Below the pieces are notes generated by a model. The model saw nothing but the letters and a program-made list of their open reading frames with translations, did no database searches and had not been told where the DNA came from. The position numbers and the translations under genes are program-made. From positions 64,001 through 128,000 of IMG/VR virus record IMGVR_UViG_3300018080_000116: a DNA stretch of 64,000 nt. One strand, given 5' to 3'. Shown in pieces: positions 6,844-47,033 of this stretch; position 1 is the first letter of the stretch; each line of letters starts with the position of its first letter. The DNA comes from a virus.

Positions 6844-6855
6844 GACGATCAGCAG

Positions 6856-6883: not shown

Positions 6884-6895
6884 AGGAAAAAAGAC

Positions 6896-7986: not shown

Positions 7987-8018
7987 ACCTTTTAAGAGGG
8001 TCGGTGTATAAGGGGGCG
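7984..8018 (+). promoter_or_regulatory. early promoter motif copy 3
   Basis: TGAACC-N17-TATAAGGGGGCG. Confidence 0.75.
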
Positions 8019-8058
8019 ACGGCAACATTGCCGTCGCCCCTATCCGAAGGAGAACCCC

Positions 8059-8535
8059 ATGAGCGACCTTTATCGACGCCGGTTGGAAGCACGAGTCAAG
8101 GCAGTCAACCGAGCCCACGCCGAGGCCAATCGCCTGTGTGCCCTGTTTCGAGCCCATTTCACCGATCTGGTGGGCAAGAAGATTCTGACCGTTGACGGCA
8201 ACTTCATGGCCCGAGTCAAGCAGGCGATGCCCGAATTGCCCCATACGGACGGCCTGATGGTGTATCGCTACCGCAGCGAGTATTCTCTGACGTTCGTGGT
8301 CAAGACGAACGAGATGATCGAGGGCGAGCACTCCTGCCTGTACTATGAAGCGTCGTTCGACGTGGGCAACCTGGACGGCCAGAACCTCAAAGAGATCGAC
8401 CAGCGCCCGTGTGAGTACCGGACGGACTTCACGGCGGAAGAGATCGCCGACCTGCGAGCGGATTACCAGCAGAAGCAGAAGATCGCCGACGCTGCCAAAT
8501 CGGCCTTGTACCCCTTTGGCGAGCACGACAGATAA
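8059..8535 (+). CDS. hypothetical early protein
   Basis: AAGGAG RBS. Confidence 0.8.
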   Translation: MSDLYRRRLEARVKAVNRAHAEANRLCALFRAHFTDLVGKKILTVDGNFMARVKQAMPELPHTDGLMVYRYRSEYSLTFVVKTNEMIEGEHSCLYYEASFDVGNLDGQNLKEIDQRPCEYRTDFTAEEIADLRADYQQKQKIADAAKSALYPFGEHDR

Positions 8536-8549
8536 AATTCAGAATTGAC

Positions 8550-8585
8550 CGAACCCTTTGCGGCTGAGCCGTGTATAAGGGGGCG
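8550..8585 (+). promoter_or_regulatory. early promoter motif copy 4
   Basis: CGAACC-N18-TATAAGGGGGCG; spacer nearly identical to copy 1. Confidence 0.8.
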
Positions 8586-8685
8586 AACCTGGGAGGCAAC
8601 AAACGGCTGGCGGGTAGATGTGCCCTTCGCATCCTTAGAAAAGCCAGCGGCCTCCCACCTTTCTGTCACTCAGTTGGAGAACCCC

Positions 8686-9687: not shown

Positions 9688-9705
9688 TTGGGGAGTTGCA
9701 ACCCT

Positions 9706-9738
9706 GAGCCCCCGGCCCTTGGGCCGGGGGCTCCTTCT
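9706..9738 (+). terminator. stem-loop terminator
   Basis: GAGCCCCCGGCCC/GGGCCGGGGGCTC then CTTCT. Confidence 0.55.
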
Positions 9739-9768
9739 AAGTTCGGATGTATAACGGAGCCCCATACC

Positions 9769-9909
9769 ATGACAGCCAACAGGTTCAACGCCCTTTGTTG
9801 CGAAGCCCTAGTCCACCCGGCGATTGCTCTTGAGAACGAAGAGATCGTCGAGGCATTGCGGCAGAGGAATGACGCCAGGGTCGAGGCCCTGTTGCGAGAG
9901 GAATTCTAA
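9769..9909 (+). CDS. small hypothetical protein
   Basis: GGAG RBS; TAATG overlap. Confidence 0.6.
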   Translation: MTANRFNALCCEALVHPAIALENEEIVEALRQRNDARVEALLREEF

Positions 9910-18485: not shown

Positions 18486-18521
18486 CGCCCACCGGCCCGA
18501 GGCCGGTGGGCGTTTTTATTT
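18486..18521 (+). terminator. intrinsic terminator
   Basis: CGCCCACCGGCC/GGCCGGTGGGCG + TTTTTATTT. Confidence 0.8.
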
Positions 18522-18532
18522 TCAAATTACAC

Positions 18533-18568
18533 CGAACCCCAGGCAGGCGAGCCGTGTATAAGGGGGCG
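18533..18568 (+). promoter_or_regulatory. early promoter motif copy 13
   Basis: CGAACC-N18-TATAAGGGGGCG. Confidence 0.8.
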
Positions 18569-18582
18569 AAAGGAACAATGCC

Positions 18583-19056
18583 ATGACCAAGCAACTGACC
18601 CTCATCGACAACGACTTCACCATCGACAAGCGGTTCGTGCTTGGTGGCAAGGCCGTCTTCACGGTCTCGAACAACAAGGGTCAGCACTACACCTACTTGG
18701 TGCAGCACAAGCCCGCCGACGACAAGTACCCCGAGGCGTACTTCGTCCGGTTGCTGACCGGCCCGGACAACATGGGCGATTACACGTACCTGGGCAAGCT
18801 CGACCAGCGTACCGGTTTCATGCAGTTGTCCCCCAAGAGCAAGATGAACGCCGACTCCCTGCCGGTCAAGGTCGTCCGCTGGGCATTGGCAAGGGTTATC
18901 TGGCCCGAGGCCCAGGTGCCCGAGGGCTACGGCATCCACGGCGAGGGTCGCTGCGGTCGCTGTGGTCACCCTCTCACTCACCCCGATGGGGTCAGCCCCG
19001 AGGGTCACCGGTTCGGATTCGGCCCGACCTGCTGGGCCAAACTCGTTGGAGGCTAA
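18583..19056 (+). CDS. DUF6011-like protein
   Basis: C-terminal CGRCGHPLT...GFGPTC motif. Confidence 0.7.
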   Translation: MTKQLTLIDNDFTIDKRFVLGGKAVFTVSNNKGQHYTYLVQHKPADDKYPEAYFVRLLTGPDNMGDYTYLGKLDQRTGFMQLSPKSKMNADSLPVKVVRWALARVIWPEAQVPEGYGIHGEGRCGRCGHPLTHPDGVSPEGHRFGFGPTCWAKLVGG

Positions 19057-19057
19057 G

Positions 19058-19106
19058 AGATCAATCCCAGCGATATATCCCACCGATGTATCCTGGGGAA
19101 GTATCC
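19058..19106. promoter_or_regulatory. array of GGATRYATCC-like boxes (4 copies, 13-bp period)
   Basis: AGATCAATCC 19058, CGATATATCC 19071, CGATGTATCC 19084, GGAAGTATCC 19097. Confidence 0.6.
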
Positions 19107-19139
19107 TGCGTTCTGTCCCTTAAACCTACGGAGATCATC

Positions 19140-19481
19140 ATGCAGTTTGTCGCCCACCCGCCCCGTCGCCTGCGTTCCCACCTGCGGCGTCTCGCCCAGG
19201 CCCAGGCCCTCCCGCTGCTGCTGGTTGGCCCGAAGCACACCGGCATCCGCCACGGCTACTGGTACGCCACGATCTACAACGGCCTGCTCGTGGCCATCAC
19301 CAAGAAGCCGGTCGCCACCAGGGACGAGGGGCGTGGCCCCGAGGCCCTGCACCGGTTCGGTCGCAAGGCCAGCGAGTACCGTGTGCGGAGCGGCAGCTAC
19401 GTGCAGGCCCAGGTCATCGAGGGCGGCAAGAAGGTCGCCCCCAAGTGGGACGCCCGCACCGGTCGCCGGATCGCCGCCTAG
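19140..19481 (+). CDS. basic hypothetical protein
   Basis: GGAG RBS before ATG19140. Confidence 0.75.
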   Translation: MQFVAHPPRRLRSHLRRLAQAQALPLLLVGPKHTGIRHGYWYATIYNGLLVAITKKPVATRDEGRGPEALHRFGRKASEYRVRSGSYVQAQVIEGGKKVAPKWDARTGRRIAA

Positions 19482-19530
19482 AATCGTCTGTGCGGCCCGC
19501 TGAGGTACTTTCACCCCCGGAGGCAACACC

Positions 19531-19731
19531 ATGCTCACCATCGACGAGAACGACGCCAGGAACGACGTGGAAGGCCAGGACGCCGAGATCAACGACCCCT
19601 GCGGCATGTGCGGTGGCCAGCTTGAGCCCCTCGGCCAACTGGCCTGCCTGCTGCACCTACGTTGCCGCAACTGCGGCATGATGTTCAACCGGCCCGTGGC
19701 CGGATGCGGCGACGGTGGCCGCATGTTCTAG
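19531..19731 (+). CDS. zinc-ribbon protein
   Basis: CGMCGG...CRNCG; GGAGG RBS. Confidence 0.7.
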   Translation: MLTIDENDARNDVEGQDAEINDPCGMCGGQLEPLGQLACLLHLRCRNCGMMFNRPVAGCGDGGRMF

Positions 19732-19786
19732 TGATCCCCAGACCCACCGGGCAGCCGCCCGGTGGGTCTCTCTTTTGGAGCGTACC

Positions 19787-19939
19787 ATGTTAGGTCTCAA
19801 CGGCGAGGTCATCAGAGCCATGCAGCGACTCGGCATCGAGCCCCCGTCGCTACCGATGCGACCCTCGCCTCCCCTCGTCCCGGCTGATCGCCAGGACGAC
19901 AGCACCACCAACGGAGAAAACGATGAAGGCGTTAATTGA
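19787..19939 (+). CDS. small hypothetical protein
   Basis: GGAG RBS before ATG19787. Confidence 0.45.
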   Translation: MLGLNGEVIRAMQRLGIEPPSLPMRPSPPLVPADRQDDSTTNGENDEGVN

Positions 19940-20735
19940 AGTCGATCTTGCCGGTTGCGAAGGCATCCACCGGCAGCAGGCGCTCGACGTGCTCGCCGCC
20001 GTAGTGGACGGCAGCACCATGAGCGAGGCCCTTAGCACCGGCCTGTTCAACAGCAGCCTGTTCGAGTTGAGCAGGTTGGCCAAGCCTCAGTATGAGGGCG
20101 GCAACTGCCCGGACTGCGGCGAGCCGATCCCCGACGATGCGACGTTCGGCGACGGCTGCGAGAACTGCGAACACGTCTTCGTATGGGGGCACGATGAAGG
20201 CGACGAGCCCGAGGCCCCCGGCGTCAACTCATTGCGAGTGGTCGGCCTGGATGAAGGCATGAGGGTCGCCGTCCCGCACCTGACGGTCTACGTCGATCCC
20301 GAGCGAGTCGGCACCCCGTTCATGGTGGACGAGGATGGCCCGGACGACGAGCACGGCAGGCGATGCCCTGGCAGCAGTGGCAACCGCTACGCCTCGGCAG
20401 AGGCAGCAGGCCAGTACGTGGCCCGCTGGTTGAGCGATCCCCATGACGACCGTGGGTTACACCCTCTCGGCACTCGGAGTGGCACCCACGTGTCGGTGGT
20501 GGATGGTGGCACCGAGGTACGCCCCTGCATCGTGGACGTGGACAACAACACCGTCACCTTCCTCGACCCCAGCGACACGCATGGGCTCAAGGCGGCAAGG
20601 CCCGACAGTGAGTACCTGCTGATCCACAACGACCCCTTCTACTCCAACTGCCACCAACACCCTGTTGCCCACGTCAGCAGGAAGCCCGAGGACTGGCCCA
20701 CTGCCGAGACCGAGGACACGTACTACTACGAGTAG
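19923..20735 (+). CDS. hypothetical protein with zinc ribbon
   Basis: CPDCGE...CENC; GGAG RBS. Confidence 0.75.
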   Translation: MKALIEVDLAGCEGIHRQQALDVLAAVVDGSTMSEALSTGLFNSSLFELSRLAKPQYEGGNCPDCGEPIPDDATFGDGCENCEHVFVWGHDEGDEPEAPGVNSLRVVGLDEGMRVAVPHLTVYVDPERVGTPFMVDEDGPDDEHGRRCPGSSGNRYASAEAAGQYVARWLSDPHDDRGLHPLGTRSGTHVSVVDGGTEVRPCIVDVDNNTVTFLDPSDTHGLKAARPDSEYLLIHNDPFYSNCHQHPVAHVSRKPEDWPTAETEDTYYYE

Positions 20736-25369: not shown

Positions 25370-25679
25370 CTCGTTGTCTCCTTGCCATTTGGGCCAGCAA
25401 CTTGCCTATGATCGGAAGTTCTTCTTCCAGCTTATCGAGCTTCTTGTCATTCTCGGCCTGCCGTTCATCCATCTTCTCTTTCCATTGTTGGTCAATGAAG
25501 TGGGTGGCCTTGGCCAAGCAGGCTTGATATTCCTTCTGCGTGATGATCCCCTTGGACATCAAAGCAATGACAAGAGCATAGTGGTTGATTAGGTGGATCT
25601 GATTCGTGCCGATGAGCACTTCATTGTAATTCGGACCCTGGATCAGTTGACGAAGTGTGTCCTTCGTTTCGTCACTCAT
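25347..25679 (-). CDS. hypothetical coiled-coil protein
   Basis: ATGA overlap with PTP stop. Confidence 0.7.
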   Translation of the reverse strand: MSDETKDTLRQLIQGPNYNEVLIGTNQIHLINHYALVIALMSKGIITQKEYQACLAKATHFIDQQWKEKMDERQAENDKKLDKLEEELPIIGKLLAQMARRQRDADGEGA

Positions 25680-26188
25680 AGCTCCCATGTGTCTAATACC
25701 TCATTATCTTTTTCAGCCGCTTTTTCAAAAAGCTTCTTCATCCGTTCTTTGGCCGGTTCCCAACCCTTGCGCTTATGGAATGTCTCAACTAAGGTGGAAA
25801 ACACATGCATGTTGGGGTGAAAGCGACCTTCCCAAAAGCGAGAGGGGTTTTCTTCGTTCAAGCAGTTTTCGATAGCCGCTGCCGTCGCCGCCGATCTTGA
25901 GATCCCCGCTTGACAATGAACCATTATAGTGCCAATGTCATCTCTTTCCCAGAACGATTCTACGAAGTCCCAGATCTTGTGTGCATCATCTTCTGAAAAA
26001 AGACTGCCATGAGCAGGAGACATGGGAGCATCAATATCGCCAAAAGAGCACTGTAGCAGGCCAAGACGCTTAACGCCACTAATTTTTGGATGTTCATCGA
26101 AACTGTCTATGCTAATACAGACCCAGGGTTCGTCACACTCGAATTCCTTCGCTTTGCTCTTAGAGAGTACCACCAAGTTCTTTTTCAT
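25676..26188 (-). CDS. protein-tyrosine/dual-specificity phosphatase-like protein
   Basis: VHCQAGISRSAA (HCx5R P-loop). Confidence 0.85.
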   Translation of the reverse strand: MKKNLVVLSKSKAKEFECDEPWVCISIDSFDEHPKISGVKRLGLLQCSFGDIDAPMSPAHGSLFSEDDAHKIWDFVESFWERDDIGTIMVHCQAGISRSAATAAAIENCLNEENPSRFWEGRFHPNMHVFSTLVETFHKRKGWEPAKERMKKLFEKAAEKDNEVLDTWEL

Positions 26189-27114: not shown

Positions 27115-27344
27115 CAGATGTATTCCTCGATGATCTTGAGAACAGCCTTGATGTCGTCACCAGCCAGATCCAGTGTGGTTTCGCCTATCAAGAACTGAGC
27201 TTCGTCGGGGAAATATTCTTCCCCGTCATCGGTTTGCAGGGGGCCGTAGTTGTCTCGGAACACCTTGTCAGCATGTTGAAGCTTCTCTTGGATTATCCTG
27301 ACAATAACAGGCGGCATGAATTTAGGCACGACGACCCCTTTCAT
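27114..27344 (-). CDS. hypothetical protein
   Basis: coupled ORF; start uncertain. Confidence 0.6.
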   Translation of the reverse strand: MKGVVVPKFMPPVIVRIIQEKLQHADKVFRDNYGPLQTDDGEEYFPDEAQFLIGETTLDLAGDDIKAVLKIIEEYI

Positions 27345-28176
27345 TCACGTTCACGGGTGGCATCAATTCCAGGCGGAACGTCTTCGTGTTGAGATACATG
27401 GGCACTTCTGGATGTGCGCCTTTCCAGCGATTCTTCAATACGCAGCATCGAAACACATGGGTATTCCAAGAAACGGGAGTGTGGTCATAACGCATTTGGA
27501 GAACAACCGAAGGCATGTAGGCCAGCGGGCGATAATCCACAGCCGCCACCCCGAACTCATCATTCAATTTTTGTGTTGTAATCGAAAGAACAATGGCACA
27601 ATCGTGATCGTATGCCATGCCAACCAGTTGATGCAGCGTGTCCATCCTGCGTTTGGCTCGATAGTTGTAGGGCGTCTCCCCAGTTTGATACCAATTTCGG
27701 AAAGGAAGGGTTCCGAAGCTCTCGTCGAAAAGGATGTCGTGATTGCCCAACGCCCGATGCCAATTAGACTCGACATCTTGAGGCATGTATGAGGCGGGCA
27801 GCAGAGAGTAATCACCAAAATAATCAGTGGGGTAATACCACAAGTGCCCCTCAAAAGGGAGCGTGTTGGCACCCCTGTGAGCCAACAGGTGGGCCGTGCC
27901 CTGTTCAGGCACAAATCCCGCAGAACTTTTCTTGGCGGCATTGAGTGCCATGGTTCGCATGAGAGCCGATTTGCCAGAACCGGCTTTGCCCATGACAACT
28001 GAGACGGTTCCTCGGCGAAGACCGCCTCCTAACGCCTCGTCGAGCATTGGAAATCCGGTTGTAATAAGCTGTTCATCCAGCTTGACGATCTTCTTTTTCT
28101 TTTCCGCCACCAGAAGCGTCGGTGCCGCCACAAACGTCCCGATCACTCCCAACATCTGCCGTCTGTTTAGATTCAT
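27322..28176 (-). CDS. Tat-signal + DnaB/RecA-like ATPase domain
   Basis: MNLNRRQMLG; TGFPMLDEALGGGL; Walker A GKAGSGKS; ILFDE; LKNRW. Confidence 0.75.
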   Translation of the reverse strand: MNLNRRQMLGVIGTFVAAPTLLVAEKKKKIVKLDEQLITTGFPMLDEALGGGLRRGTVSVVMGKAGSGKSALMRTMALNAAKKSSAGFVPEQGTAHLLAHRGANTLPFEGHLWYYPTDYFGDYSLLPASYMPQDVESNWHRALGNHDILFDESFGTLPFRNWYQTGETPYNYRAKRRMDTLHQLVGMAYDHDCAIVLSITTQKLNDEFGVAAVDYRPLAYMPSVVLQMRYDHTPVSWNTHVFRCCVLKNRWKGAHPEVPMYLNTKTFRLELMPPVNVNERGRRA

Positions 28177-28781
28177 TGCAAGTTCTCCCAGTGTGCTTCC
28201 ATGCGAAAGCTGCCCTTCTCGCACATGAAGTCCATGCGGTCAATGTAGGATCGAGGATGACCGCTCGCCCAATACCAATACGACGGGTAATCAACATGCG
28301 CCCACACATCGGCATCGGGAGAGCCATGAAGCGGACTGCCCTCCCATATGGCAAAGCCCCTCTGGCCCGACAGCCACAGGGTAGCATCTGGATTTTCTCG
28401 CAGATGATAGAAATTCCCCTTCCCCTCTTTCCACGCAGGCTTAAAGGCCATCATGTGGGAGATTGTGAAAGGGTGGGCCATGACCCACTTCACCGGGCCT
28501 TTTTCTTTCCAAATGATCTCGCACAAATGCCAGTAAAACCCTTCAATGCGTTCGTTCACCAACAGATGTTCGGACTTGACATTGCCGTAGTGTAAATGCT
28601 TGGGCGCATCATGCAGCATGTCGAACGTCCGCACATCATGCTGGGGAATATGTCCCGGTTCGGGTTCCAGGATCTTTACTTCGTGTCTTCCTGGCTTGAG
28701 GGGAAGAAAAGCAGAAGCAGGCAAGACCACTGCGGCTCCCGCCGCAGTGGTCATTTTCAAAAAGTCCCTTCGATTATGCAT
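28173..28781 (-). CDS. Tat-signal hypothetical protein
   Basis: MHNRRDFLKMTTAAGAAVVLP. Confidence 0.8.
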   Translation of the reverse strand: MHNRRDFLKMTTAAGAAVVLPASAFLPLKPGRHEVKILEPEPGHIPQHDVRTFDMLHDAPKHLHYGNVKSEHLLVNERIEGFYWHLCEIIWKEKGPVKWVMAHPFTISHMMAFKPAWKEGKGNFYHLRENPDATLWLSGQRGFAIWEGSPLHGSPDADVWAHVDYPSYWYWASGHPRSYIDRMDFMCEKGSFRMEAHWENLQ

Positions 28782-29283
28782 GGGGTCTCCTTTTTTGCTG
28801 TGCGGTCATAATGCAGACGTTGTTTTCCATGGCGACCCTTCTCCACATTTCCATTTCGGAGGGGAGTTCTCTCAAGTCAGAGAAAGACAGGGACTTCACG
28901 ACATCTCGCTTGGTCATGGGTTGACCAGCGATCAAAAGTCTGGCTTCGGGCCATGTGGCTTTTGCCACAGCAACCTTTGATACCAGATTGCGGGGCCCGT
29001 AGATGAACCAGACCTTCATGGGGTAGCTCATGTTCTCGTCGGCTTCGATGGAATCTTCTACCGCTCTCATAAAATCCCATTCCCGTTCTCGGTCTCTGAA
29101 GATCATTGGAACCCGAACGAGATCGGTTCCATCACCTTTGGCATCGATTTGACAATCATTGCTTTGTGTGGAAACGTAGTAGATTTCGCTCGCCTGTTTC
29201 ACTGGCGTGGCGAAAGAGAGGGGCAAGACCACTGCGGCTCCCGCCGCAGTGGTCGTTTTCAAAAAGTTTCTTCGGTTAATCAT
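28774..29283 (-). CDS. Tat-signal protein with DnaB-like C-terminal motif
   Basis: MINRRNFLKTTTAAGAAVVLP; AMENNVCIMTAQQKRR; GGAGG RBS. Confidence 0.75.
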   Translation of the reverse strand: MINRRNFLKTTTAAGAAVVLPLSFATPVKQASEIYYVSTQSNDCQIDAKGDGTDLVRVPMIFRDREREWDFMRAVEDSIEADENMSYPMKVWFIYGPRNLVSKVAVAKATWPEARLLIAGQPMTKRDVVKSLSFSDLRELPSEMEMWRRVAMENNVCIMTAQQKRRPHA

Positions 29284-29452
29284 TGTTTCCTCCAAACGAA
29301 TCCGGTTCGTTCACATCGAATGCCCGCCCGAGTCCACACGATTCTATCGCAGTTCTCAAAGGATCGCACGGTGTTTCTTTTAGATGGTGCGTCCTTGTGA
29401 GCCACATGAGGGTCGTATGCCCTCTGAACAGGCGGCGCTTGTCGTGGAGCAT

Positions 29453-29665
29453 TCATTTTCGAGGGTCCGGTAGAAGGTACATGGGCCACAAGATCGCCAG
29501 CCCGGCACATATCGCTGCTTTGCCCCAGTTGATACCGATGCCGGGCTCCCACCAGCGTCCGAATTTATGATCGGGCTGGGCAAACATCAAGATAAAGCTC
29601 GTGGTCCATCCAATCAAGTAGACTGTGAAGAGGGTAGAGATGATCCATCCGATGATTGCAATCAT
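29453..29665 (-). CDS. small two-TM membrane protein
   Basis: hydrophobic profile. Confidence 0.65.
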   Translation of the reverse strand: MIAIIGWIISTLFTVYLIGWTTSFILMFAQPDHKFGRWWEPGIGINWGKAAICAGLAILWPMYLLPDPRK

Positions 29666-29719
29666 GTTAATCTCAGTTTTGCAAAAAGGCTACCCCGATT
29701 TTGTAGGTCTTTTTGTCCA

Positions 29720-30082
29720 TCAGTCTTTTACCTCTCTATACAGGCTTTGTTTCAGCCGCTTCCACTGCCCGCCGATATTATTTGCGTGTATGGAATGAAG
29801 CCCCTGAAAAAGGTTGACGGTGCTATCAGTGCGAACGAACACGCACACTTGGGTTCCCCCTTCTTCTGTCCTCCACAAGTACCATTCCCCCAGATCGGTC
29901 GGACACCGAGACCAGTTTTCTCGATCTCGTTTTTCCTCAGCTTGGATCTGGATGTCCATCAAGAGGGATTCAGCGGCTTGCAGGGTGGCAAAGCTGCCAT
30001 CTGAATGGCGTATCTCTAGCGGATTCTCACACTCAACTGTCCACCCTTCGGACATCAATAGTTCGATCATATTGTCATCCAT
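29720..30082 (-). CDS. hypothetical protein
   Basis: GGAGG RBS before MDDNMIE. Confidence 0.65.
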   Translation of the reverse strand: MDDNMIELLMSEGWTVECENPLEIRHSDGSFATLQAAESLLMDIQIQAEEKRDRENWSRCPTDLGEWYLWRTEEGGTQVCVFVRTDSTVNLFQGLHSIHANNIGGQWKRLKQSLYREVKD

Positions 30083-30219
30083 TGTCATCCTCCGTAATGA
30101 AGTTGCTTTCCCACCCTTCATGGTACGTTCCGTTGGCATCGTAGCCCTTGACGTACCAGTCGGCGGCGTACATTCCGTAGTGCTCTTTGGTCCGGGATAC
30201 AACCCGGACGAGGACAACT

Positions 30220-30423
30220 TTAGTCGTTTGGCCCATGGCTTGCCACACCCCTTGTTTGGCGTTCCTGGATGACTTCCACCATCCGAATCCAATCCCATTG
30301 TAGGTTCGGGCTGCATCGGATCTCGGTGAACTTAATCATGGCTTCCTGATCGGAATCGGCCTCAAACCGTGTGTAGAGTTTTTCTGGGATGTCATGTCGG
30401 GCGTGATAGACTTCGTATTTCAT
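30220..30423 (-). CDS. hypothetical protein
   Basis: ATGA overlap. Confidence 0.65.
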   Translation of the reverse strand: MKYEVYHARHDIPEKLYTRFEADSDQEAMIKFTEIRCSPNLQWDWIRMVEVIQERQTRGVASHGPND

Positions 30424-30734
30424 GTTTTCTTGTGTCTTGTAATGTCGAGTAGGTACAGGAATAGAACAATAACGCCAAGGATCAAAGCCACTATGATGGC
30501 GGCTGCGAACAAAGTCCCAAGAAGGAGGGCAAAACCACCAATGATAGTCCCATCATTAAACTCCCACGCCAACTCCGGTGTCCCCCACAACCAGTTGAAG
30601 GCGGTTGTGGTGGGGCCGACTATTTGTCTCCAGCAGGAGAGCAGCAGCATGATTGGCTTGCCGAAGATGGCCAAGACAACGCATGTCATTGTCACATAAA
30701 CCAACAGTCGTCCGGTGGTGTATTGCTTCAACAT
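30420..30734 (-). CDS. membrane protein
   Basis: several hydrophobic segments. Confidence 0.6.
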   Translation of the reverse strand: MLKQYTTGRLLVYVTMTCVVLAIFGKPIMLLLSCWRQIVGPTTTAFNWLWGTPELAWEFNDGTIIGGFALLLGTLFAAAIIVALILGVIVLFLYLLDITRHKKT

Positions 30735-30973
30735 GACACAAATAAGGGTCCATTCGGTCCCACATATGCCCCAAGTGTGTTGAATTGAAAGTATTCAATG
30801 GCGTCTTCTTCGGTTGCGCCATCTTTCATGAGGATGTCAATGCATTTGATGCTGCTGTAGACGGCTCGACAGGGTTCACATGCGTTATGCGTAAACCCTA
30901 TGATGGCATCATCGAACCCATCGGCGAACAGGGCATCCTCATTTCTTTCTGCGATCTGTTCTTTTAGATTCAT
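30728..30973 (-). CDS. conserved phage hypothetical protein
   Basis: ADGFDDAIIG...AVYS..KCIDIL...EDAIEYFQFN..GAYVG motif. Confidence 0.75.
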   Translation of the reverse strand: MNLKEQIAERNEDALFADGFDDAIIGFTHNACEPCRAVYSSIKCIDILMKDGATEEDAIEYFQFNTLGAYVGPNGPLFVSC

Positions 30974-31016
30974 TCTTTTAATTTTGTTTTCTTTTCCCTA
31001 GTGCTTCCGATGGACA

Positions 31017-31050
31017 AACGCCCCGTGCCACCGGCACGGGGCGTTCTTTT
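31017..31050. terminator. stem-loop terminator (possibly bidirectional)
   Basis: AACGCCCCGTGCC/GGCACGGGGCGTT. Confidence 0.6.
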
Positions 31051-31073
31051 GATTGTGATTTAATCTGGCTTAT

Positions 31074-31307
31074 TTACCAAGCCAGTACGACGCCATCCCC
31101 TCGTCGGATAATCTCAAAGCCCATTGTCTTGAGAGCGGGCCAGATTTTTCCTTCTGCCATGCCTTTTGGGGGCAATGGGAGGGAGATGTTTCGCAGCGGA
31201 GAGATGAATCGGTTCCTTCCCGCTCGCTCAATTTCACGAGCCCTTAGGGTAATCTCGGAGACATACCGGCTGGCTTCCATTCCTTTTTCCTTGTTTGCCC
31301 CTGTCAC
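31074..31307 (-). CDS. hypothetical protein
   Basis: ORF track. Confidence 0.55.
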   Translation of the reverse strand: MTGANKEKGMEASRYVSEITLRAREIERAGRNRFISPLRNISLPLPPKGMAEGKIWPALKTMGFEIIRRGDGVVLAW

Positions 31308-31310
31308 GCC

Positions 31311-31772
31311 CTACTTCTTCACGACGTACTTGGTTCCTTCCACGACGATCCATTCCATGGTCCTGAGATCGACTTGACGCATTTGGGGACCGGTTTCGAC
31401 CAGTTCTTCCACCTGGGCGTAGCCCGTGTCGTTGGTGGCGAGGAATCGGCAGATCATGTTACGGTCGGAGCCGTCTTTCTTGACGAATTGGATCTGGATG
31501 GGTTTGTTGGGGCTATCCTTGAGGATGCCGATGATCTTGGTTCGGCTGAGGGTGACTTCTTCTTCAACGAAGTTGCCTGAGAACCCTTTTTGGATCAGTG
31601 GTTCGCCTTGGACGGTGAACATCTGGTCTTGTTCGATGTTCTTGACGACGAGGCACAGGTCTCCGTCTTTGTTTTTTACTTCCTCCACGATGGTGTAGAA
31701 GTGAAAGGCGACGACATCGCCTTTTTTGACTTTGGTGGGATCGAGTTCATTGATTACTTTGTCTTCGTTCAT
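31311..31772 (-). CDS. conserved phage hypothetical protein
   Basis: AAGGA RBS; QFVKKDGSDR...VDLRTMEWIVVEGTKY. Confidence 0.75.
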   Translation of the reverse strand: MNEDKVINELDPTKVKKGDVVAFHFYTIVEEVKNKDGDLCLVVKNIEQDQMFTVQGEPLIQKGFSGNFVEEEVTLSRTKIIGILKDSPNKPIQIQFVKKDGSDRNMICRFLATNDTGYAQVEELVETGPQMRQVDLRTMEWIVVEGTKYVVKK

Positions 31773-31791
31773 TGGTTTTCCTTTCTCCTTG

Positions 31792-32346
31792 TTAATCGGT
31801 AAGAGCGTTCAATTCTTCCGGCCATTTTGATTTTCCGCTTATCGCAATATCGGCCAGATCACCCAGGAGATCCCATTGGACGTTGAAGGTGTCACCTTCT
31901 CGGAGGTACGTGTCCAGTTCTCGGAAAGATCTCAACACCAGAGACTCTCCATCTGGAAAGGGGCTTTTTTTATAGAACAGTTGGAGGGACAGGCGGGACA
32001 CGTGAAAGAGAGAGTCACGGGCAACGAAGTGGCCCGTGACTCTGAAGGTTGCGTCTTCGTAGACGACTTTAGTGTCATCCAGGATGTAGCAAGCAGTTGC
32101 GGGCTTGCCGAGGTGGATCATTTGTCTTGAGCCGACCGAGCGTCTGCCCGTGATGTCCATGAAAGCCGTGAAGCTTTCGGCCAGTCGTTGTTTGGCGTCA
32201 TCGAGTGATGAGTGGGAGACGACGAGTCGATCTTTGGGCGGCTCGTCGATACCGAAGTTATCGTCAGTGAGCAGCGAAAAGGGGATGAATGCTGCGGATG
32301 CCCCAGCGGCGGCTGTTTTCAGGAAGTTCCTGCGGGTGTGCGACAT
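31792..32346 (-). CDS. Tat-signal protein, possible virion-structural-protein-like domain
   Basis: MSHTRRNFLKTAAAGASAAFIP; DATFRVTG...YLREGDTFNVQWD. Confidence 0.75.
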   Translation of the reverse strand: MSHTRRNFLKTAAAGASAAFIPFSLLTDDNFGIDEPPKDRLVVSHSSLDDAKQRLAESFTAFMDITGRRSVGSRQMIHLGKPATACYILDDTKVVYEDATFRVTGHFVARDSLFHVSRLSLQLFYKKSPFPDGESLVLRSFRELDTYLREGDTFNVQWDLLGDLADIAISGKSKWPEELNALTD

Positions 32347-32479
32347 TATTAACTCCGTCTAATAATGGAATCGGAGAAACGAAGAGCGACTGCGGCATCC
32401 TGCCGCAGTCGCTCTCTCCCCATGCGAGGCTTTACAATCCTTATGCCTCCCCTGCCACAACGTCCCATGTTGTGGACTT

Positions 32480-32884
32480 CTACTGGCTAGATCCTTCTGC
32501 CTCGTTTTCACCTTGGGGGTTGAGCAACTCTTCCTTGCTTCTCCATGCTTTGCGAAGTTCGATCTTACTCATCCCGGCCCATTTGTCAATACAGGTTTGG
32601 TGTTGCTCGTCGGTGAGTCGCCCTTCTTCTTTTGCGGTGTTGGCCCAAGCAGTCAGGCTTGTTTTGTATTGTTCCTTGGCCATTTCGTTGAAAACGATTT
32701 GCGTTGTTGTTTCCTGAAAGCCGGTGGGTGGGTGTGCGATGAATTCTTCACCGTCTGCGGCTTGGCCCATTTCGTCGATCTGGGCGAGATCATCATGGGG
32801 AGCTTCATCGGGCGCAATCTCGGGCTGGGGTTCTTGGCAGCCAACGAAGAGGACAAAGGCTAGGAGGGGCAGCAGGCGTTTCAT
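32480..32884 (-). CDS. lipoprotein
   Basis: MKRLLPLLAFVLFVG|C lipobox. Confidence 0.75.
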   Translation of the reverse strand: MKRLLPLLAFVLFVGCQEPQPEIAPDEAPHDDLAQIDEMGQAADGEEFIAHPPTGFQETTTQIVFNEMAKEQYKTSLTAWANTAKEEGRLTDEQHQTCIDKWAGMSKIELRKAWRSKEELLNPQGENEAEGSSQ

Positions 32885-33038
32885 TGGTTTTCCTTAGACA
32901 TCCGTGGGCTTGGAGGGTATTGATTACGTGGTCGGCGGCAGTATCAGTGTCCATGCCTGATACATCAATTTTGAGTCCTATGTCAATGGCGTTTCGGAGG
33001 GCGGCGATGATTTCGGCTCGGGCGGTTTCATACTGCAT
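32805..33038 (-). CDS. hypothetical protein
   Basis: ORF track; overlaps neighbours. Confidence 0.45.
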   Translation of the reverse strand: MQYETARAEIIAALRNAIDIGLKIDVSGMDTDTAADHVINTLQAHGCLRKTNETPAAPPSLCPLRWLPRTPARDCAR

Positions 33039-33382
33039 GATCTTTCACCATAATACATGTAAACATTTTCATAATACCAATCAATGGTGAACGCCAGGAA
33101 GACACAATGTTCCGGGCAGTTCTCTTTTATAGCTTCGGGCAGCGAGATGTATTTGCTGCGAAGAACGTCTTTGGTTTTGGTCTTTCCAAACCATCCCTCA
33201 ACCTCTTCTTGACACACAACGAAATCCTTCCACACGAGGATTTCGCCAGTCCCCTCGCCTGTGGCCACCTTTTTTTTGACGACGTAGACACGTTCGAGGC
33301 TAGTGATGTCGAACGAGACGAGGGCGGCGGCATTTTGGGCGGCTGTTGCTGCGGCGGGTTGTGGCACGGGTTTACCTAACAT
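32978..33382 (-). CDS. hypothetical protein
   Basis: start near stop of upstream gene. Confidence 0.55.
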   Translation of the reverse strand: MLGKPVPQPAAATAAQNAAALVSFDITSLERVYVVKKKVATGEGTGEILVWKDFVVCQEEVEGWFGKTKTKDVLRSKYISLPEAIKENCPEHCVFLAFTIDWYYENVYMYYGERSCSMKPPEPKSSPPSETPLT

Positions 33383-33660
33383 GTTTCTTGTTTGACTCGC
33401 TCCAGGTTGGCGAGCAGGTTGTATTTGATGACCCAATGCAGGTGCGGATTATAGATGATGTCGTGTCTAATTTGCAAGTAGTCTTTTTCGTCTTGGCAAG
33501 CCATAATCCTCTTGCAGAATTCGCCATCGAGTGCCTTGATACCGAGTGGTGTTTTACAGCAGAAAAAGAAGCTGCTGTTGAGAGGTGCTTGATCGACGTA
33601 GACGGCATCCATGCCGCCGCAGTCTTCAAGCGTGAAGGGCAGGTCCATCTGGATCAACAT
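33376..33660 (-). CDS. hypothetical protein
   Basis: start overlaps upstream stop. Confidence 0.55.
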   Translation of the reverse strand: MLIQMDLPFTLEDCGGMDAVYVDQAPLNSSFFFCCKTPLGIKALDGEFCKRIMACQDEKDYLQIRHDIIYNPHLHWVIKYNLLANLERVKQETC

Positions 33661-34223
33661 CCGTCTTGCACCTTTGAGATTGCGTGGACTCCAAGCAGTT
33701 TTACATTCTTTGACACGACAGTGACATATCGCTCTTCTTGGCAGGGGGTGACATCGAAAAGTTCTCTCTCGGTGTCGGCTTGAACGGCGGTGCGGAAGAC
33801 AATATCTTTGGGCATGCCTCTTTTGGGCAACACCAATTCCCTGAGTCGTCGGCCTTCGGGGGTGTCGAGGCATTGGATGTCGCAAATAACCCAATCCTCG
33901 TGGGTGTCGCAATCATGAAGAAACTCGAATTTTGTAGCAACGTGAGAGATTTCGCTGAGACGGATCTTACAATCTTTGGGCATGCCGATTTGGCCCCACA
34001 CGCCTTCTTTGGGAATTCGGTCAACCATTTCCTCGATGGCTTTCCGGGGGTAAATGTTCATGTTCTTGGTGGGGCGGTCAAGAACAAGCGTCCGGACGTG
34101 TACGAGTTTGTCGGGAGGTTTCGCCACGGCTTCAACGACCGGTGGCGTGTCCTCGAAAGAGATGGGGATCGCTGCGGCGGATGCGGCTGCCGCTGCCGTT
34201 TTCAAAAAACTCCTTCTATCCAT
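33654..34223 (-). CDS. Tat-signal + catalytically degenerate T4 gp21-type prohead protease paralog
   Basis: MDRRSFLK; [40 protein letters not shown] match gp21-family blocks. Confidence 0.65.
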
Positions 34224-34422
34224 CGTCTTCCCGGCCTCCTTGATCTGCCCGCTGGATTGCTTCCCAGACTTCCCTGCGGTGAACGCACTTCCACTCCTTG
34301 GGAGCGTTGATGCCGAGTCGGACTTTATCGCCTCGGATTTCAACGACCACGATGTCAATTACGTTGTCGGGATCGGGGCCAACAACAATGCTTTCATTTT
34401 TCTTTCTGGACAACACGAGCAT
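34216..34422 (-). CDS. csrA: carbon storage regulator CsrA
   Basis: [15 protein letters not shown]...[16 protein letters not shown]...VHRREV. Confidence 0.92.
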
Positions 34423-34435
34423 GGGAATCTCCTTT

Positions 34436-35071
34436 TTAACAGAGTTCGTTAATGAGAGCGTCCTTCAGTTCTCCATCGAGCTTCAGGGGTTCGCCAAGGG
34501 GTTGGAAACCACACACATGAACGGCGTAGAATTCGTCAAGGGCAGCTTCGTCAAAACCACGGAAGCAATCAATCATTTCGCCGAAATACAAGTCCATCGT
34601 AAGCAGTTCCCAACCGCTCTTCGTGAACTGACTTCCAATAGATACTGGATGAACGTCGGCGAGACATTCTTGTCTGTTGTTGGCGAAGTCCCAGAGCGTT
34701 ACGATCCTGGAATCAACAACATAGTCCAGCTTTCCACCTTCTCGCTTAAACGGCGTGGGCTTCGACCAATCCCATAGATCTTGTGACAGAACTTTGGCGT
34801 CCTTGAGAGTGAAAGTCAGCCGCAATGATCCGACGAGGCCCCGTGCATCCCCATTGAAGCGCCGGTAAGTCCAAAAGAAATTGGGAATCCAATTGATGCC
34901 TTCGATGTGAAGTCCCAGTTGGTCGTCACGACCATAAACGTCGCCGTACTTGGTAATGGGTTTGGGTTTCGGCTTTGGAAGAACGGGTTCGTAAGAAATC
35001 AGCGGAGCCACAATCGGCAATGACAGAGCGGCGGCAGTGTTCCTCAAAAAGTCACGTCTTGTGGCGATCAT
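34436..35071 (-). CDS. Tat-signal + possible tail-tube (gp19-like) domain
   Basis: [10 protein letters not shown]; LTFTLKD...LWDW; IVTLWD...LADVHPVSI...LTMDLYF. Confidence 0.6.
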
Positions 35072-35191
35072 CTTTCTTTCTCCTCTCATGGAACTTGGAA
35101 ACATCGAAATCAATTTTGACTCGATGGTTCTTGCGCAAAACAATCACTCCCGACCTGCGGTCGGAAGTGATTTTGATGACTTTCTTGTTTT

Positions 35192-35365
35192 TCATTGCCC
35201 CACGGCCTTAATCAGATCGGGCAGGCTTGAAGAGAAACCCGCAAGCAGGAAACCAACAAACAGGAACCAACCCCATCCTTCCTTTTCTTTCACGGCCAAG
35301 AAGGCGGCAACGATGAAGCAGGTGATGGACGGTAGTAGGGACAGGAATAAAACTAATAGGGCCAC
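35192..35365 (-). CDS. small two-TM protein
   Basis: TAAGGAG RBS + GTG start. Confidence 0.65.
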   Translation of the reverse strand: MALLVLFLSLLPSITCFIVAAFLAVKEKEGWGWFLFVGFLLAGFSSSLPDLIKAVGQ

Positions 35366-35375
35366 GATGTTCTCC

Positions 35376-35927
35376 TTAACAGATGGCGGTCGGTGCGGCA
35401 CAACGGGGGTGAAGGTATATTCCTTCGACCTTTTGTAGAGTGGATTCGGGAATGACCCCAACATTGATCCACAGTTGGTTTTTGAGCGTGCGAACCAAAA
35501 CCAACTTAACCGCTCCATAGCAAACCCAATGTTCGTCGTCGATTCGTCTCTCGTAACAAACAGCATCGCTTTTCCGGAGGAACGCTTTGATGTTTTTCTC
35601 GTAGAATTCAATGTCGGTTGGCTCGCCCGTGGCGAAGTCGGTCCCACGGACACCTTCCCAGGGGGTTTCGTCAAAAAGCACATCCCCGTTGATGAGGTAT
35701 GGCCCCATCATTTCGATCACAGGCAGGAGTCCAGCGGGAGTCATCTCCACCCTAATGACACTGCCGGGTTTGGAAGGTTCGCCCCTTTTCAACTCCTCAT
35801 ACTCCATATCCCACTTCCAATCGGGGTATCTCAATCGGTCGGTATCGGTATAGGCTTCGGCGGCGACGGGTATGGCAGCACCAGCAAGTGCGATTGGGGC
35901 GGCTTTGAGAAAAGTGCGTCGTTCCAT
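35376..35927 (-). CDS. Tat-signal hypothetical protein
   Basis: MERRTFLKAAPIALAGAAIPVAAEA (AxA site); GGAGG RBS. Confidence 0.8.
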   Translation of the reverse strand: MERRTFLKAAPIALAGAAIPVAAEAYTDTDRLRYPDWKWDMEYEELKRGEPSKPGSVIRVEMTPAGLLPVIEMMGPYLINGDVLFDETPWEGVRGTDFATGEPTDIEFYEKNIKAFLRKSDAVCYERRIDDEHWVCYGAVKLVLVRTLKNQLWINVGVIPESTLQKVEGIYLHPRCAAPTAIC

Positions 35928-35938
35928 GGATTCCTCCA

Positions 35939-36523
35939 TCAATGTTCATGAAAACACATATCACAAGCGTCCTGCCAACAATAATGACCGCAAGCCTCGC
36001 AGTCATTTGGGCACTCAAACATGCCCACAGCGATTGGAAGTGAGTTAATCGCCGCAACTGGAATCCCCATTGTAGGTTGTGGGAAATCCGTGTCAAGAGA
36101 TTCTCGCAGAATCATGTTGGGCAGTTCAGCCAACTTCAAGAGGGGTTTAAGAAGATCCCTCCGTCGAGTGGTTGACCGGAATAGCGTATCAGGTGTATTC
36201 CTGACAATCTCTATGACTTTTTCAACATACTCTTCGGAGTAGTAATCCCCTCCGGAGTGCCAACGAAAGAAATCTGGCTGGAATCTTTTCAATTCGGCTA
36301 GTACCTTCTCTACGAAGTCTTTCCGCTTGGATGCACGGTAGCGTGCAAGGGTTGCCTTGCGCACCGAGTCCATTTTGAAATTATTCCGGCGAGCGTAGCA
36401 GGCTGGCTTGCCATTACGGCCCTTGAGGCACCAACTCGTCGGCTTGCAGGTTAGATGTGGTGGGAGATTGAAGATGTAGACTTTCGCCCCCATCTTGCTG
36501 TTGCCCTTGATGAGCAGATTCAT
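35939..36523 (-). CDS. Gp88-family protein
   Basis: FNLP...TC...C......CYA; FRWHSGGD; terminal CPNDCEACGHYCW. Confidence 0.75.
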   Translation of the reverse strand: MNLLIKGNSKMGAKVYIFNLPPHLTCKPTSWCLKGRNGKPACYARRNNFKMDSVRKATLARYRASKRKDFVEKVLAELKRFQPDFFRWHSGGDYYSEEYVEKVIEIVRNTPDTLFRSTTRRRDLLKPLLKLAELPNMILRESLDTDFPQPTMGIPVAAINSLPIAVGMFECPNDCEACGHYCWQDACDMCFHEH

Positions 36524-36770
36524 CGTACTTCTCCAATTCGTATTCCACTACGTCAGACCAAGTAAGCTCGCCGAGATCGTTAGCGTATCTGATGCGGTAT
36601 TTGTAGCCTTTGGCCCAGCCATTGTAGCTGAAACTATTGACAATGGTAGCCGTTTTGTCCAGTGCGGGAACATAAACTATTTCCCCGCAGACAAACTTGT
36701 TGTTGGGCTCGTTATCGGCTGGAGCGCAACCGAAAATCAACAAAATCAAGATGAACAGCGACTTTTTCAA
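36414..36770 (-). CDS. lipoprotein
   Basis: AGGAG + TTG start; LFILILLIFG|C; 3' end overlaps next gene. Confidence 0.55.
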   Translation of the reverse strand: MKKSLFILILLIFGCAPADNEPNNKFVCGEIVYVPALDKTATIVNSFSYNGWAKGYKYRIRYANDLGELTWSDVVEYELEKYDESAHQGQQQDGGESLHLQSPTTSNLQADELVPQGP

Positions 36771-36783
36771 TCCGGGGCTCCTT

Positions 36784-37509
36784 TCAGACGGATTCATAGC
36801 GGGTGCAACAGTGTGGCCGAAAATCATAGACTGCGAAGGGCTCGAACTTGTGTGGATCGGATCGAGGGGGAAACTCAATTTCTCTAGTCAAGAACATACG
36901 ACCCCAGCCCCACTTACAACGACAGCTTGATCCGCTGGGCCACGTGATCTCTTTGCCCTCCGGGTGAAAACAAACAACCCTGTTTTCGTAAGGCAGGATT
37001 ACCTCACGCATGTTGGTTTGCGAAACGAACTTCCCATGGTCTTTGTATTCACTCCAGCGACTATGGACATACCCTTCGATGGCCGAGTCAAGCCAGTCGA
37101 AAAGATACTTGTCATCCCCACCATCTTTATGCAGTTTGCGGAAGTAGGAGCGGATTCTTCCCCAGTGAGAGGGAACCACGGGCAGGCCATAGGCTTCGTG
37201 TAATTTACACCACTCACACTCGGGCACCAACTCTGCATAGTCCTTGCCCGGCATGCGATGCAATCGAAGGTTTTCTTCCGTGCAGGCATCCACCCAGAAT
37301 GTTCCCCGGCAGAGTTTGCAGCGGTACTTAGCATCCGGGCCGTCACCGAACATGAACTCAAAGTGTCTCCATCCGGACACCGATCCGGACACTTTGTCCG
37401 GTTTCTTGTCCGGATTGGCCTTAATAATCGGTGTATTAAGTCCTAGCGGAACGACACAAGTAGCGGCGGCTGTCGCCGCCGATACTTTAAGGAAGTCACG
37501 TCTACGCAT
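36784..37509 (-). CDS. Tat-signal Cys-rich protein
   Basis: MRRRDFLKVSAATAAATCVVP; CKLC and CEWC. Confidence 0.8.
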   Translation of the reverse strand: MRRRDFLKVSAATAAATCVVPLGLNTPIIKANPDKKPDKVSGSVSGWRHFEFMFGDGPDAKYRCKLCRGTFWVDACTEENLRLHRMPGKDYAELVPECEWCKLHEAYGLPVVPSHWGRIRSYFRKLHKDGGDDKYLFDWLDSAIEGYVHSRWSEYKDHGKFVSQTNMREVILPYENRVVCFHPEGKEITWPSGSSCRCKWGWGRMFLTREIEFPPRSDPHKFEPFAVYDFRPHCCTRYESV

Positions 37510-37518
37510 TGTAAGCTC

Positions 37519-37749
37519 CTATGCTGCTGCGGCCTGCACCGCCATGATGAACCGTTGGTCTTCTTCAAGCATCATTTCTTTAACGGCTCGTTCCCTCATC
37601 AAATCAAGTAGGTCTTGGTGGGCTTGACCAAGACGGCGGACCTTGGGTTGGGGTGGAACTGGATCTTTGGGCTGCGGCGTGCAACCCAAGGGAACAACCG
37701 CCGCCGCCATGCTGGCGGCGACGGTTTTTAAAAAACTTCGACGGTTCAT
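37519..37749 (-). CDS. Tat-signal lipoprotein-like small protein
   Basis: MNRRSFLKTVAASMAAAVVPLG|C; TTAGATA box at 37781-37787. Confidence 0.75.
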   Translation of the reverse strand: MNRRSFLKTVAASMAAAVVPLGCTPQPKDPVPPQPKVRRLGQAHQDLLDLMRERAVKEMMLEEDQRFIMAVQAAAA

Positions 37750-45485: not shown

Positions 45486-47033
45486 TTAACCTTGGCCGAC
45501 GCCAAGTTTGCCCAGGAATTTTTCAACCTCCAGGGCATCTACGGCTTGGCCTCTCATGTGGTTTGGCAGCTTACCACTGCCACCACAGTAGGCACAACCA
45601 CCACCTTGGCAACCAGGACACCTATCTCGGTCGGAACCTTCGATTTCACCCCACTGTGCCAGCGGTCGGTCTTCATCTGCGAACATTCGCACGCTCTTGG
45701 CCCAGGTGGGTCTGGGGTCTCTAACTTTGCCCTTCTCTGTGAGACGGAACATGTTGACCCATTCTCTGACCTGTTCTGGGCTTAGACCGGTCCCCCTAAT
45801 GCGTTTCAACATTACTGCTCGGTCTTGCGGTGAGAATTCTAGAAGTTGCAGCAGGAACATAACCGCACGTCGTTCTTGATTGGCCCAACCGGTTGGTGTG
45901 GCTTGCCCTCTTATGTCTCTCGATCCGCCCAAGGCCGCTTCAACTGCTTCTAGCGGGTTACCTTGAAGCAACCAAGCCAGAGCAAGCGACTTATCTCTGC
46001 GAGAGGAAAATTCTGAGGGGATATTCATGTTGAGTCTCACCCCTGGGAACACTCGTTCCGACAGACCGGTTCTATCGTAGATCTTAACGTATCTTTCAAC
46101 ATCCACATCGGGGTGCAGCAAACCTTTGAGAAACTCATCTCGCACTCTTTCGAGGGCCACACCACGCAGATCAACAAAGTCTTGCAGCGCATCTTCGATG
46201 TCTGGGTCCATTCTGGACCCCTTGCCGAATCGACAGTGAAATCGCACGGCTCGCATCACACGCAACTTATCTTCATTGAATCTATCTCTTGCTTTGCCTA
46301 CCGTTCGGACGACTTGATTTTTGATGTCATGCCACCCCTTCCCGGTGGGATCGTAGAGCCTGTTATTTTCGCCATCGGATTTGGTCAGTTCAATATACAT
46401 GGCGTTGATTGTGAGGTCTCTTCTGCTTGCGTCTTCGTGGGGGTTGTCCACGAAATCCACCAGGGCGGCACCATCGGTCACCTTGGCGTCACGACGAAAA
46501 GTAGCAATTTCAAACTCCTCGCCATCCACCACAGCGCTGATAACAAATACCTTGCCCGATTCATCTCGTCCCTTAACGAACCAAGTTTTCCTATCACTCT
46601 TGCTGGATGTTTTGGGGCGGAAGGTGAGTCTGAGTGGCTTGGCATTTTCATCATTTTTACCACTGCGATCAGGCGACATGGTGAAGCCTGCTGAGGAGAG
46701 AATGAGCGCAATTTGTTCTGGGGTGGCATTGCTTGCCAAATCGTAATCCTTGATGGACTTCCCGGCGATGAAATCACGAACGGGACCGCCCACCAGAAAC
46801 AGTGACTTCTTCTGCATGGTGATGGGCTTGCCATCGGTGTTGTCCATCAGCTTGATGTTACCGCTATTCAAGAAAGCTTCAATCAGGGGCCGCATTTTGG
46901 CTGGAGGAATGAATCCCTTTTCCATCTGAATGAATTCTTTCTTCCAGTCTTTGCCCGCATTGCCACTCGCATCGGGCTGGCCTTCTTCTTTCAGCACAAC
47001 AAACTGCTTAAATGATGGTATTTCAGGCTTCAT
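45486..47033 (-). CDS. cca: class II tRNA nucleotidyltransferase (CCA-adding enzyme)
   Basis: LVGGPVRD; DYDLA; EIATFR; EDASRRDLTINAM; EDKLRVMRAVRF; ERVRDEFLKGL; no poly(A)-polymerase GRRF signature. Confidence 0.88.
   Translation of the reverse strand: MKPEIPSFKQFVVLKEEGQPDASGNAGKDWKKEFIQMEKGFIPPAKMRPLIEAFLNSGNIKLMDNTDGKPITMQKKSLFLVGGPVRDFIAGKSIKDYDLASNATPEQIALILSSAGFTMSPDRSGKNDENAKPLRLTFRPKTSSKSDRKTWFVKGRDESGKVFVISAVVDGEEFEIATFRRDAKVTDGAALVDFVDNPHEDASRRDLTINAMYIELTKSDGENNRLYDPTGKGWHDIKNQVVRTVGKARDRFNEDKLRVMRAVRFHCRFGKGSRMDPDIEDALQDFVDLRGVALERVRDEFLKGLLHPDVDVERYVKIYDRTGLSERVFPGVRLNMNIPSEFSSRRDKSLALAWLLQGNPLEAVEAALGGSRDIRGQATPTGWANQERRAVMFLLQLLEFSPQDRAVMLKRIRGTGLSPEQVREWVNMFRLTEKGKVRDPRPTWAKSVRMFADEDRPLAQWGEIEGSDRDRCPGCQGGGCAYCGGSGKLPNHMRGQAVDALEVEKFLGKLGVGQG

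Follow-up and report, generated by a model that had tools for sequence, protein, structure and literature searches.

The window analysed here, 64,000 nucleotides of an uncultured phage (positions 64001-128000 in a linear IMG/VR virus record of 138,192 bp), encodes a 284-aa protein, P0001, in which a twin-arginine leader stands directly before a RecA-superfamily NTPase core. The RecA fold of the core is certain. We propose that P0001 is targeted to Tat, that its leader probably anchors it, and that it would serve at the periplasmic face as an oligomeric scaffold or binding module; the use of Tat, the topology, the oligomer and the function are predictions, and we put the chance that this reading is right at about even. 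RecA-superfamily NTPases are the archetypal cytoplasmic DNA and clock motors. We found no published equivalent of such a core with a Tat leader, and full-text literature searches returned neither a phage Tat-cargo family nor a RecA-like Tat substrate.

The phage that carries the gene is a very large uncultured one. CheckV places the completeness of the 138-kb record at 27%, so the whole genome is roughly 500 kb. The baseplate wedge protein of the record is 46% identical to that of LR756511.1, a 595-kb uncultured huge phage.

The P0001 gene and its RecA-type core

The coding sequence occupies window positions 27322..28176 on the minus strand, stop codon included, as given by the ORF translation and by the N-terminus that homologues share. 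All of the motifs quoted in the original prediction are present in this translation (NRRQMLG at aa 4-10, GKAGSGKS at aa 63-70, ILFDE at aa 148-152 and KNR at aa 248-250). Reading the sequence around the ATG at 28176, we found a Shine-Dalgarno-like GGGAGAA (28183..28189, minus strand) separated from it by a 6-nt spacer, and an overlap of the ATG with the TGA of the upstream gene (ATGA, 28173-28176), a sign that the P0001 gene is translationally coupled to that gene. A longer version starting at GTG 28224 is unlikely, since the N-termini of the close homologues all read M-x-x-NRRQ and both the Shine-Dalgarno-like site and the ATGA favour ATG 28176. Three of these close homologues (42-48% identity) start M-x-x-NRRQxLGVIGTFxAAPxLLV, and the N-terminus is the best conserved stretch of P0001 among them. 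Two outcomes could have overturned the original prediction, namely a translation start after the signal and a domain that is not RecA-fold. The first is excluded by conservation, the RR pair being present in 23/23 aligned and 38/38 tabulated relatives, and the second by the structural results that follow.

The NTPase core spans aa 38-277 (27346..28065, minus strand) and is supported by AF2, Foldseek, VIA and the family profile. The AF2 model used was made from a 51-sequence input and reached a pLDDT of 80.8 and a pTM of 0.79 (an earlier 4-sequence input gave a pLDDT of 51, which was too poor). Its top Foldseek match was bacterial RecA (E 1e-12, prob 1.0). An exhaustive structural search with VIA returned Z values of 19.7-17 with 190-218 residues aligned; over model residues 30-277, these were 19.7 for the T7 gp4 helicase, 19.4 for RecA, 19.3 for DnaB, 19.1 for RadA/Sms, 18.8 for Rad51, 18.4 for KaiC and 17.8 for FlaH. 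The Atlas structure search agreed on a RecA fold (TM 0.64-0.70). Moreover, the family profile aligned over the whole core to RecA (residues ~8-235), RadA/Sms and archaeal RadA in the PDB, and positions ~35-236 of the family HMM aligned to the C-domains of phage DnaB helicases of 420-490 aa. Comparison by hhalign with LR756511.1 gave Prob 97% and E 4.5e-11 over 207 columns for its 338-aa RecA, and Prob 96% and E 3.5e-9 over 143 columns for its DnaB-like protein. The models and alignments together go beyond chance and bear out the predicted RecA-fold domain with intact Walker A GKAGSGKS, ILFDE and KNR; the leader lies outside this fold.

The domain had originally been called DnaB-type. The RecA-superfamily core stood up to analysis; the DnaB-specific assignment was rejected, RecA, RadA/Sms, T7 gp4, DnaB, Rad51 and KaiC (six subfamilies) all being tied, and 'DnaB-type' is one of several tied labels for this core. 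When P0001 was searched as a single sequence, its Pfam and PHROG matches (KaiC, DnaB_C, Rad51, RecA) were confined to aa ~32-92 and lay below the Pfam cut-offs. The profile search against DnaB_C and KaiC that had been suggested as a check gave a mixed answer, in that both profiles matched and both fell short: KaiC (PF06745), the top Pfam match, scored 25.3 bits against a cut-off of 26.6 over aa 39-83 only, and DnaB_C (PF03796) scored 21.4 bits against a cut-off of 27 over aa 38-85 only (48 residues). The KaiC model was matched at E <= 0.01 by 13/23 relatives. P0001 scored 17.3 against TIGR00665, whose cut-off is 385, and also stayed below the thresholds of the RecA family (PF00154, 13.9 with a cut-off of 27; TIGR02012, 16.8 with a cut-off of 325). 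Its best PHROG was phrog_19, a DnaB-like helicase (E 4.5e-11).

P0001 has the core fold in common with RecA (PF00154; PDB 3CMU, 4PSA; LR756511.1 RecA), at an identity of about 17%, and has equivalents of its TGS..LD..LG.GG motif, Walker A, Glu96, Walker B and K248-N-K250. Unlike RecA, it has an RR leader in place of the N-terminal helix, L2 is apparently not conserved (the equivalent region is variable and indel-rich across the family in the 23-sequence alignment), and the C-terminal domain appears to be absent: little of the chain remains beyond the core (model residues 30-277 in the structural alignment), with no room for one. The DnaB-type ATPase domains of T7 gp4 (1CR0), E. coli DnaB (6KZA) and RadA/Sms (8RXC/5LKM), with Z of 19.7, 19.3 and 19.1, have a KNRxG-like motif in common with P0001, which differs from them in carrying a leader peptide and in lacking a DnaB N-terminal or primase/zinc domain. 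As originally claimed, the DnaB N-terminal domain (PF00772) is missing from the 284 aa of P0001, whose core follows the leader directly, from about aa 35. Since many relatives have lost the P-loop, helicase function is incompatible with the family pattern. Finally, single-domain KaiC/RecA-like proteins (archaeal FlaH/ArlH, RadB and PH0284; PF06745) resemble P0001 in size (220-290 aa), in consisting of one core and in structure (Z 17-18.6), but they are cytoplasmic and have no signal peptide, and their archaeal context is not seen for P0001. FlaH offers a precedent, being a RecA-like protein that binds nucleotide and has a structural role in a membrane machine.

Leader and catalytic motifs across the family

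The family comprises about 38 distant relatives of 168-317 aa at 21-50% identity; an exhaustive profile search gave about 35 further representative clusters, of the same size range and aligned from residue 1-3. It is rare and apparently undescribed, and it is restricted to huge phages as far as the context could be seen (two members). Among the IMG/VR profile scans, one query gave a family member with context, on a 245-kb contig, and the others gave ordinary DnaB or RecA genes or nothing. A metagenome scan with the leader pattern found three 1.4-kb contigs only, a genome-contig scan for the family found nothing, and tblastn against isolated phages returned no member. LR756511.1 has a canonical RecA and a DnaB-like gene and no leader-bearing member of the family.

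The twin-arginine leader covers aa 1-25 (28102..28176, minus strand; MNLN-RR-Q-MLGVIGTFVAAPTLLVA-E), with its RR codons at 28159-28164 on the same strand, and is conserved in the relatives. NRRQML at aa 4-9 fits the Tat motif Z-R-R-x-hydrophobic-hydrophobic. The RR is followed by an uncharged run of 17 aa, within the ~12-20 residues of an h-region, with a best 12-residue Kyte-Doolittle (KD) value of 1.96; the eight neighbouring canonical Tat leaders are alike in this respect (runs of 15-19 residues, KD 1.6-2.2). Across 38 members, the run is 12-24 residues long (median 16), its best 12-residue value is about 1.9, and a charged residue (usually K or E) comes next. In the 23-sequence alignment, R5 and R6 do not vary, and L9, G13 and P19 are each at least 90% conserved. 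Moreover, the RR is present in 38/38 relatives and is never K-substituted, even at 21-30% identity. Many relatives' leaders read RRDFLK, RRNFLK or RRTFLK, and 3/23 relatives pass the Pfam TAT_signal model (PF10518); P0001's own leader matched neither PF10518 nor TIGR01409. The predicted Tat-type leader is therefore upheld, on the strength of the invariant RR, the L at +3, the median-16 uncharged run and the relatives' RRxFLK leaders that pass PF10518. The fusion of an RR leader to a RecA core is old, since the ~38 distant relatives all keep both the RR and the hydrophobic run.

Straight after the hydrophobic run lies a basic linker, KKKKIVKLDEQL (aa 26-37; 28066..28101, minus strand), without a conserved AxA; a KKKK stretch follows the run, and the linker may represent the basic 'Sec-avoidance' feature of a c-region. 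The leader of P0001 ends L-V-A|E, which is not conserved, most relatives having LLVKE, and an AxA signal-peptidase site (AIA|H) was seen in one member, that from the 245-kb phage contig. We read the N-terminus of P0001 as a Tat-type leader by homology, probably uncleaved, and export is predicted from it. The Rieske Fe-S protein is a Tat substrate with an uncleaved signal anchor, and P0001 resembles Rieske-type Tat anchors in having an RR and a hydrophobic run, no obvious peptidase site and then a folded globular domain. The uncleaved Tat-anchor cases known to us are cellular redox-cofactor proteins, none of them a P-loop NTPase, and a phage family of uncleaved-anchor Tat substrates was not found in the literature searches. 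It had been suggested that the tag acts as a membrane or translocase anchor. A membrane anchor is plausible, most members including P0001 being without a conserved AxA; docking on the translocase is weighed below.

P0001 carries TGFPMLDEALGGG at aa 40-52 (minus strand). Its Walker A, GKAGSGKS (aa 63-70; 27967..27990, minus strand), is intact in 22/37 relatives and lost in 15/37. Glu91, in FVPEQ (27904..27906, minus strand), aligns with the Glu of RecA AFIDAEH, E96, which we take to be the catalytic one, and outside the P0001 clade is kept by a few members only. The Walker B region reads DILFDE (aa 147-152; 27721..27738, minus strand), D147 being at least 90% conserved. KNR (aa 248-250; 27427..27435, minus strand) aligns with RecA KNK and also resembles the KNRFG of RadA/Sms and the DnaB Arg-finger region; K248, N249 and R250 are each at least 90% conserved, and the motif is conserved also in P-loop-dead members. 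By alignment, P0001 has the motif set of an active NTPase (GKAGSGKS, E91, D151/E152, K248/R250), which predicts activity, and its clade retains Walker A, the catalytic Glu, Walker B and KNR.

Elsewhere in the family, one entire subclade with canonical RRDFLK leaders is without Walker A. On a quick maximum-likelihood tree, which has long branches, P-loop loss needs 3-4 changes, at least 2 of them forced by well-supported branches. The P-loop-dead members keep the leader, the TGF..D..GG motif, D147 and KNR. This combination, loss of the P-loop with retention of leader, TGF..D..GG and KNR, fits a place or role without ATP turnover in which the oligomer interface is retained. We take it to mean that selection acts on targeting and the oligomer interface, ATP turnover probably being dispensable in much of the family.

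Cellular location and role of P0001

The reading that we favour is the following. P0001 would fold in the cytoplasm, possibly around nucleotide, and the host Tat translocase would recognise it through the RR leader. The leader would probably stay as an N-terminal anchor and hold the RecA-like domain at the periplasmic face of the inner membrane, since a conserved signal-peptidase site is missing from P0001 and most of its relatives and the residues after the hydrophobic run are basic. The periplasmic face has no ATP supply, so P0001 would work there not as a motor but as an oligomeric scaffold in the manner of RecA, as a binding module or, at the very most, as a single-turnover switch. In this phage it may cooperate with the other eight Tat cargoes, whose genes lie immediately upstream.

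The intact catalytic set of the P0001 clade argues for real nucleotide chemistry, which would be hard to square with the periplasm, and it keeps alive a rival on the cytoplasmic side. According to this rival, the uncleaved RR leader would dock an active, untransported ATPase on host TatBC or the inner membrane, where it would gate, block or assist the export of the phage Tat cargoes. ATP is found only in the cytoplasm; the missing conserved cleavage site and the KKKK after the hydrophobic run suit docking, as does the position of the gene in a cluster with eight Tat-cargo genes, to which it appears to be translationally coupled. However, the 245-kb phage contig has the gene without the Tat-cargo cluster, 40% of the family is without a P-loop, and the canonical AxA site of one member implies release on the far side of the membrane. 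Since we also found no precedent in the literature, we regard docking of this kind as unlikely.

Anchored export through Tat has also to be set against a different route into the membrane. If P0001 were an SRP/Sec/YidC signal-anchored protein, the RR would provide positive-inside charge only and the Tat likeness would be superficial. The run is indeed rather hydrophobic (KD 1.96 over 12 residues), no cleavage site is seen and neither Tat HMM matches P0001, but the bona fide Tat leaders next to it are just as hydrophobic, and neither the invariance of both Arg, with L at +3, in 38 relatives nor the gradation of the leaders into RRxFLK agrees with a role in charge only. Basic residues directly after a hydrophobic run disfavour Sec. 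Moreover, a fast-folding, nucleotide-binding RecA core would probably make a poor Sec passenger. We consider this route quite improbable.

The N-terminus could instead be a remodelled RecA oligomerisation element, in which case P0001 would be a non-exported cytoplasmic RecA/DnaB paralogue, serving as a decoy, an inhibitor or a replication/recombination accessory. In line with this, hhalign set aa 2-19 of P0001 (NLNRRQMLGVIGTFVAAP) opposite aa 24-41 of LR756511.1 RecA (KLNKQHGLGTIGVYTEMP; gene 1285-2301, minus strand), an alignment that may be due to chance or may hint at how the leader arose; KNR is conserved, as are the interface motifs; and LR756511.1 encodes a canonical RecA and a DnaB-like protein, which would be possible targets of interference. 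Yet 12-24 residues without charge behind an invariant RR resemble a signal and not the amphipathic helix of RecA, and the family has members with canonical RRxFLK and with an AxA site. The L2-equivalent region is indel-rich, so DNA binding is probably not conserved, which also counts against such a paralogue. A separate full-length helicase was sought as well, and no second RecA or DnaB_C, and with it no target, was found in the available 138-kb record, which is 27% complete. We give this explanation very little credence. The helicase decoy of the original prediction found no support, and a protein that is exported would be unable to titrate a sensor in the cytoplasm. A decoy for cytoplasmic immune sensors was rejected, since nothing speaks for it and it does not go together with an export leader.

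The Tat-gene block and its phage

Upstream of the P0001 gene and on the same (minus) strand lies a block of eight further Tat-leader genes (28173..37749), which start at 28781, 29283, 32346, 34223, 35071, 35927, 37509 and 37749. Together with P0001 this makes nine leader-bearing genes within about 10 kb (window 27322-37749, minus strand) in an operon-like arrangement. The TIGR01409 cut-off is reached by 7/8 of the neighbours. PF10518 has seven matches in the 138-kb record, all of them inside the block, and one weak match in the 595 kb of LR756511.1. TatA and TatC were not found in the 138-kb record (27% complete), which counts against the favoured reading.

The nine proteins have only their leaders in common, and blastp revealed no paralogues in the 138 kb. 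At 90% identity, 62 nt of leader DNA are shared by two adjacent Tat genes (window 28720-28781 and 29222-29283) whose mature parts are unrelated, and a third leader copy (32282-32343) is 63% identical; this suggests that a leader module was copied recently among the Tat genes. The P0001 leader lies outside this 62-nt repeat. The coupled neighbour at 28176-28781 (minus strand) has no homologue among 5.8 billion proteins. In another neighbour, at 33657-34223 (minus strand), the mature part has the fold of a T4 gp21-type prohead protease (Peptidase_S77 clusters, Atlas TM 0.64/0.65; phrog_207, E 2.5e-4). Among the Tat genes there is also a GP88-family protein (35939-36523, minus strand; PF17338, E 3e-24).

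The 245-kb contig comes from a second huge phage (48% complete, ~500-kb genome) and has its family member at the syntenic position. Homologues of the phage-encoded tRNA nucleotidyltransferase (CCA-adding enzyme; window 45486-47033, minus strand; phrog_2244, E 3e-41) and of three other genes precede that member. The gap to the family member is 1.9 kb in the second phage and 12.7 kb here, where it holds the eight extra Tat genes. Since the Tat-cargo block is not at the syntenic site of the second phage, what is conserved is the RR-RecA gene, and the other cargoes have accreted beside it in a lineage-specific manner.

A wider proposal would be that huge phages send diverged copies of their own cytoplasmic core machinery, such as a RecA-type NTPase and a prohead-protease-fold protein, through the host Tat system, and assemble from them, on the inner membrane's outer face, a phage-specified apparatus that might for example intercept the DNA or proteins of competitor phages. 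The RecA-like protein would then be a nucleotide-independent or pre-loaded oligomer, and its leader was perhaps carved from the N-terminal segment of RecA. We offer this as speculation and think it rather doubtful; within the 138-kb fragment, the idea of degenerate copies of the phage's own genes had no sequence support (blastp, no paralogues).

If P0001 is truly exported, the cargo range of Tat widens, a phage-encoded Tat secretome of nine leader genes in 10 kb is revealed, and the family becomes a natural experiment on a RecA fold without ATP. The family also supplies leaders and passengers that can be tested in work on Tat quality control.

Some other features of the window deserve mention. 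A dual-specificity phosphatase-like protein is encoded at 25676-26188 (minus strand; phrog_5614, E 9e-19), with a DSPc match under the Pfam cut-off. The phage has an overall G+C content of about 50%, and window positions 6000-20000 form an island of 58-64% G+C, inside which lie a gene for tRNA-Ala (13475-13543) and an anti-restriction-like gene with ArdC-N and zincin metallopeptidase domains (10920-11951). Finally, upstream of the baseplate genes, a single ORF of 3833 aa (51041-62542, plus strand) has no Pfam match and is possibly a giant tail or fibre protein.
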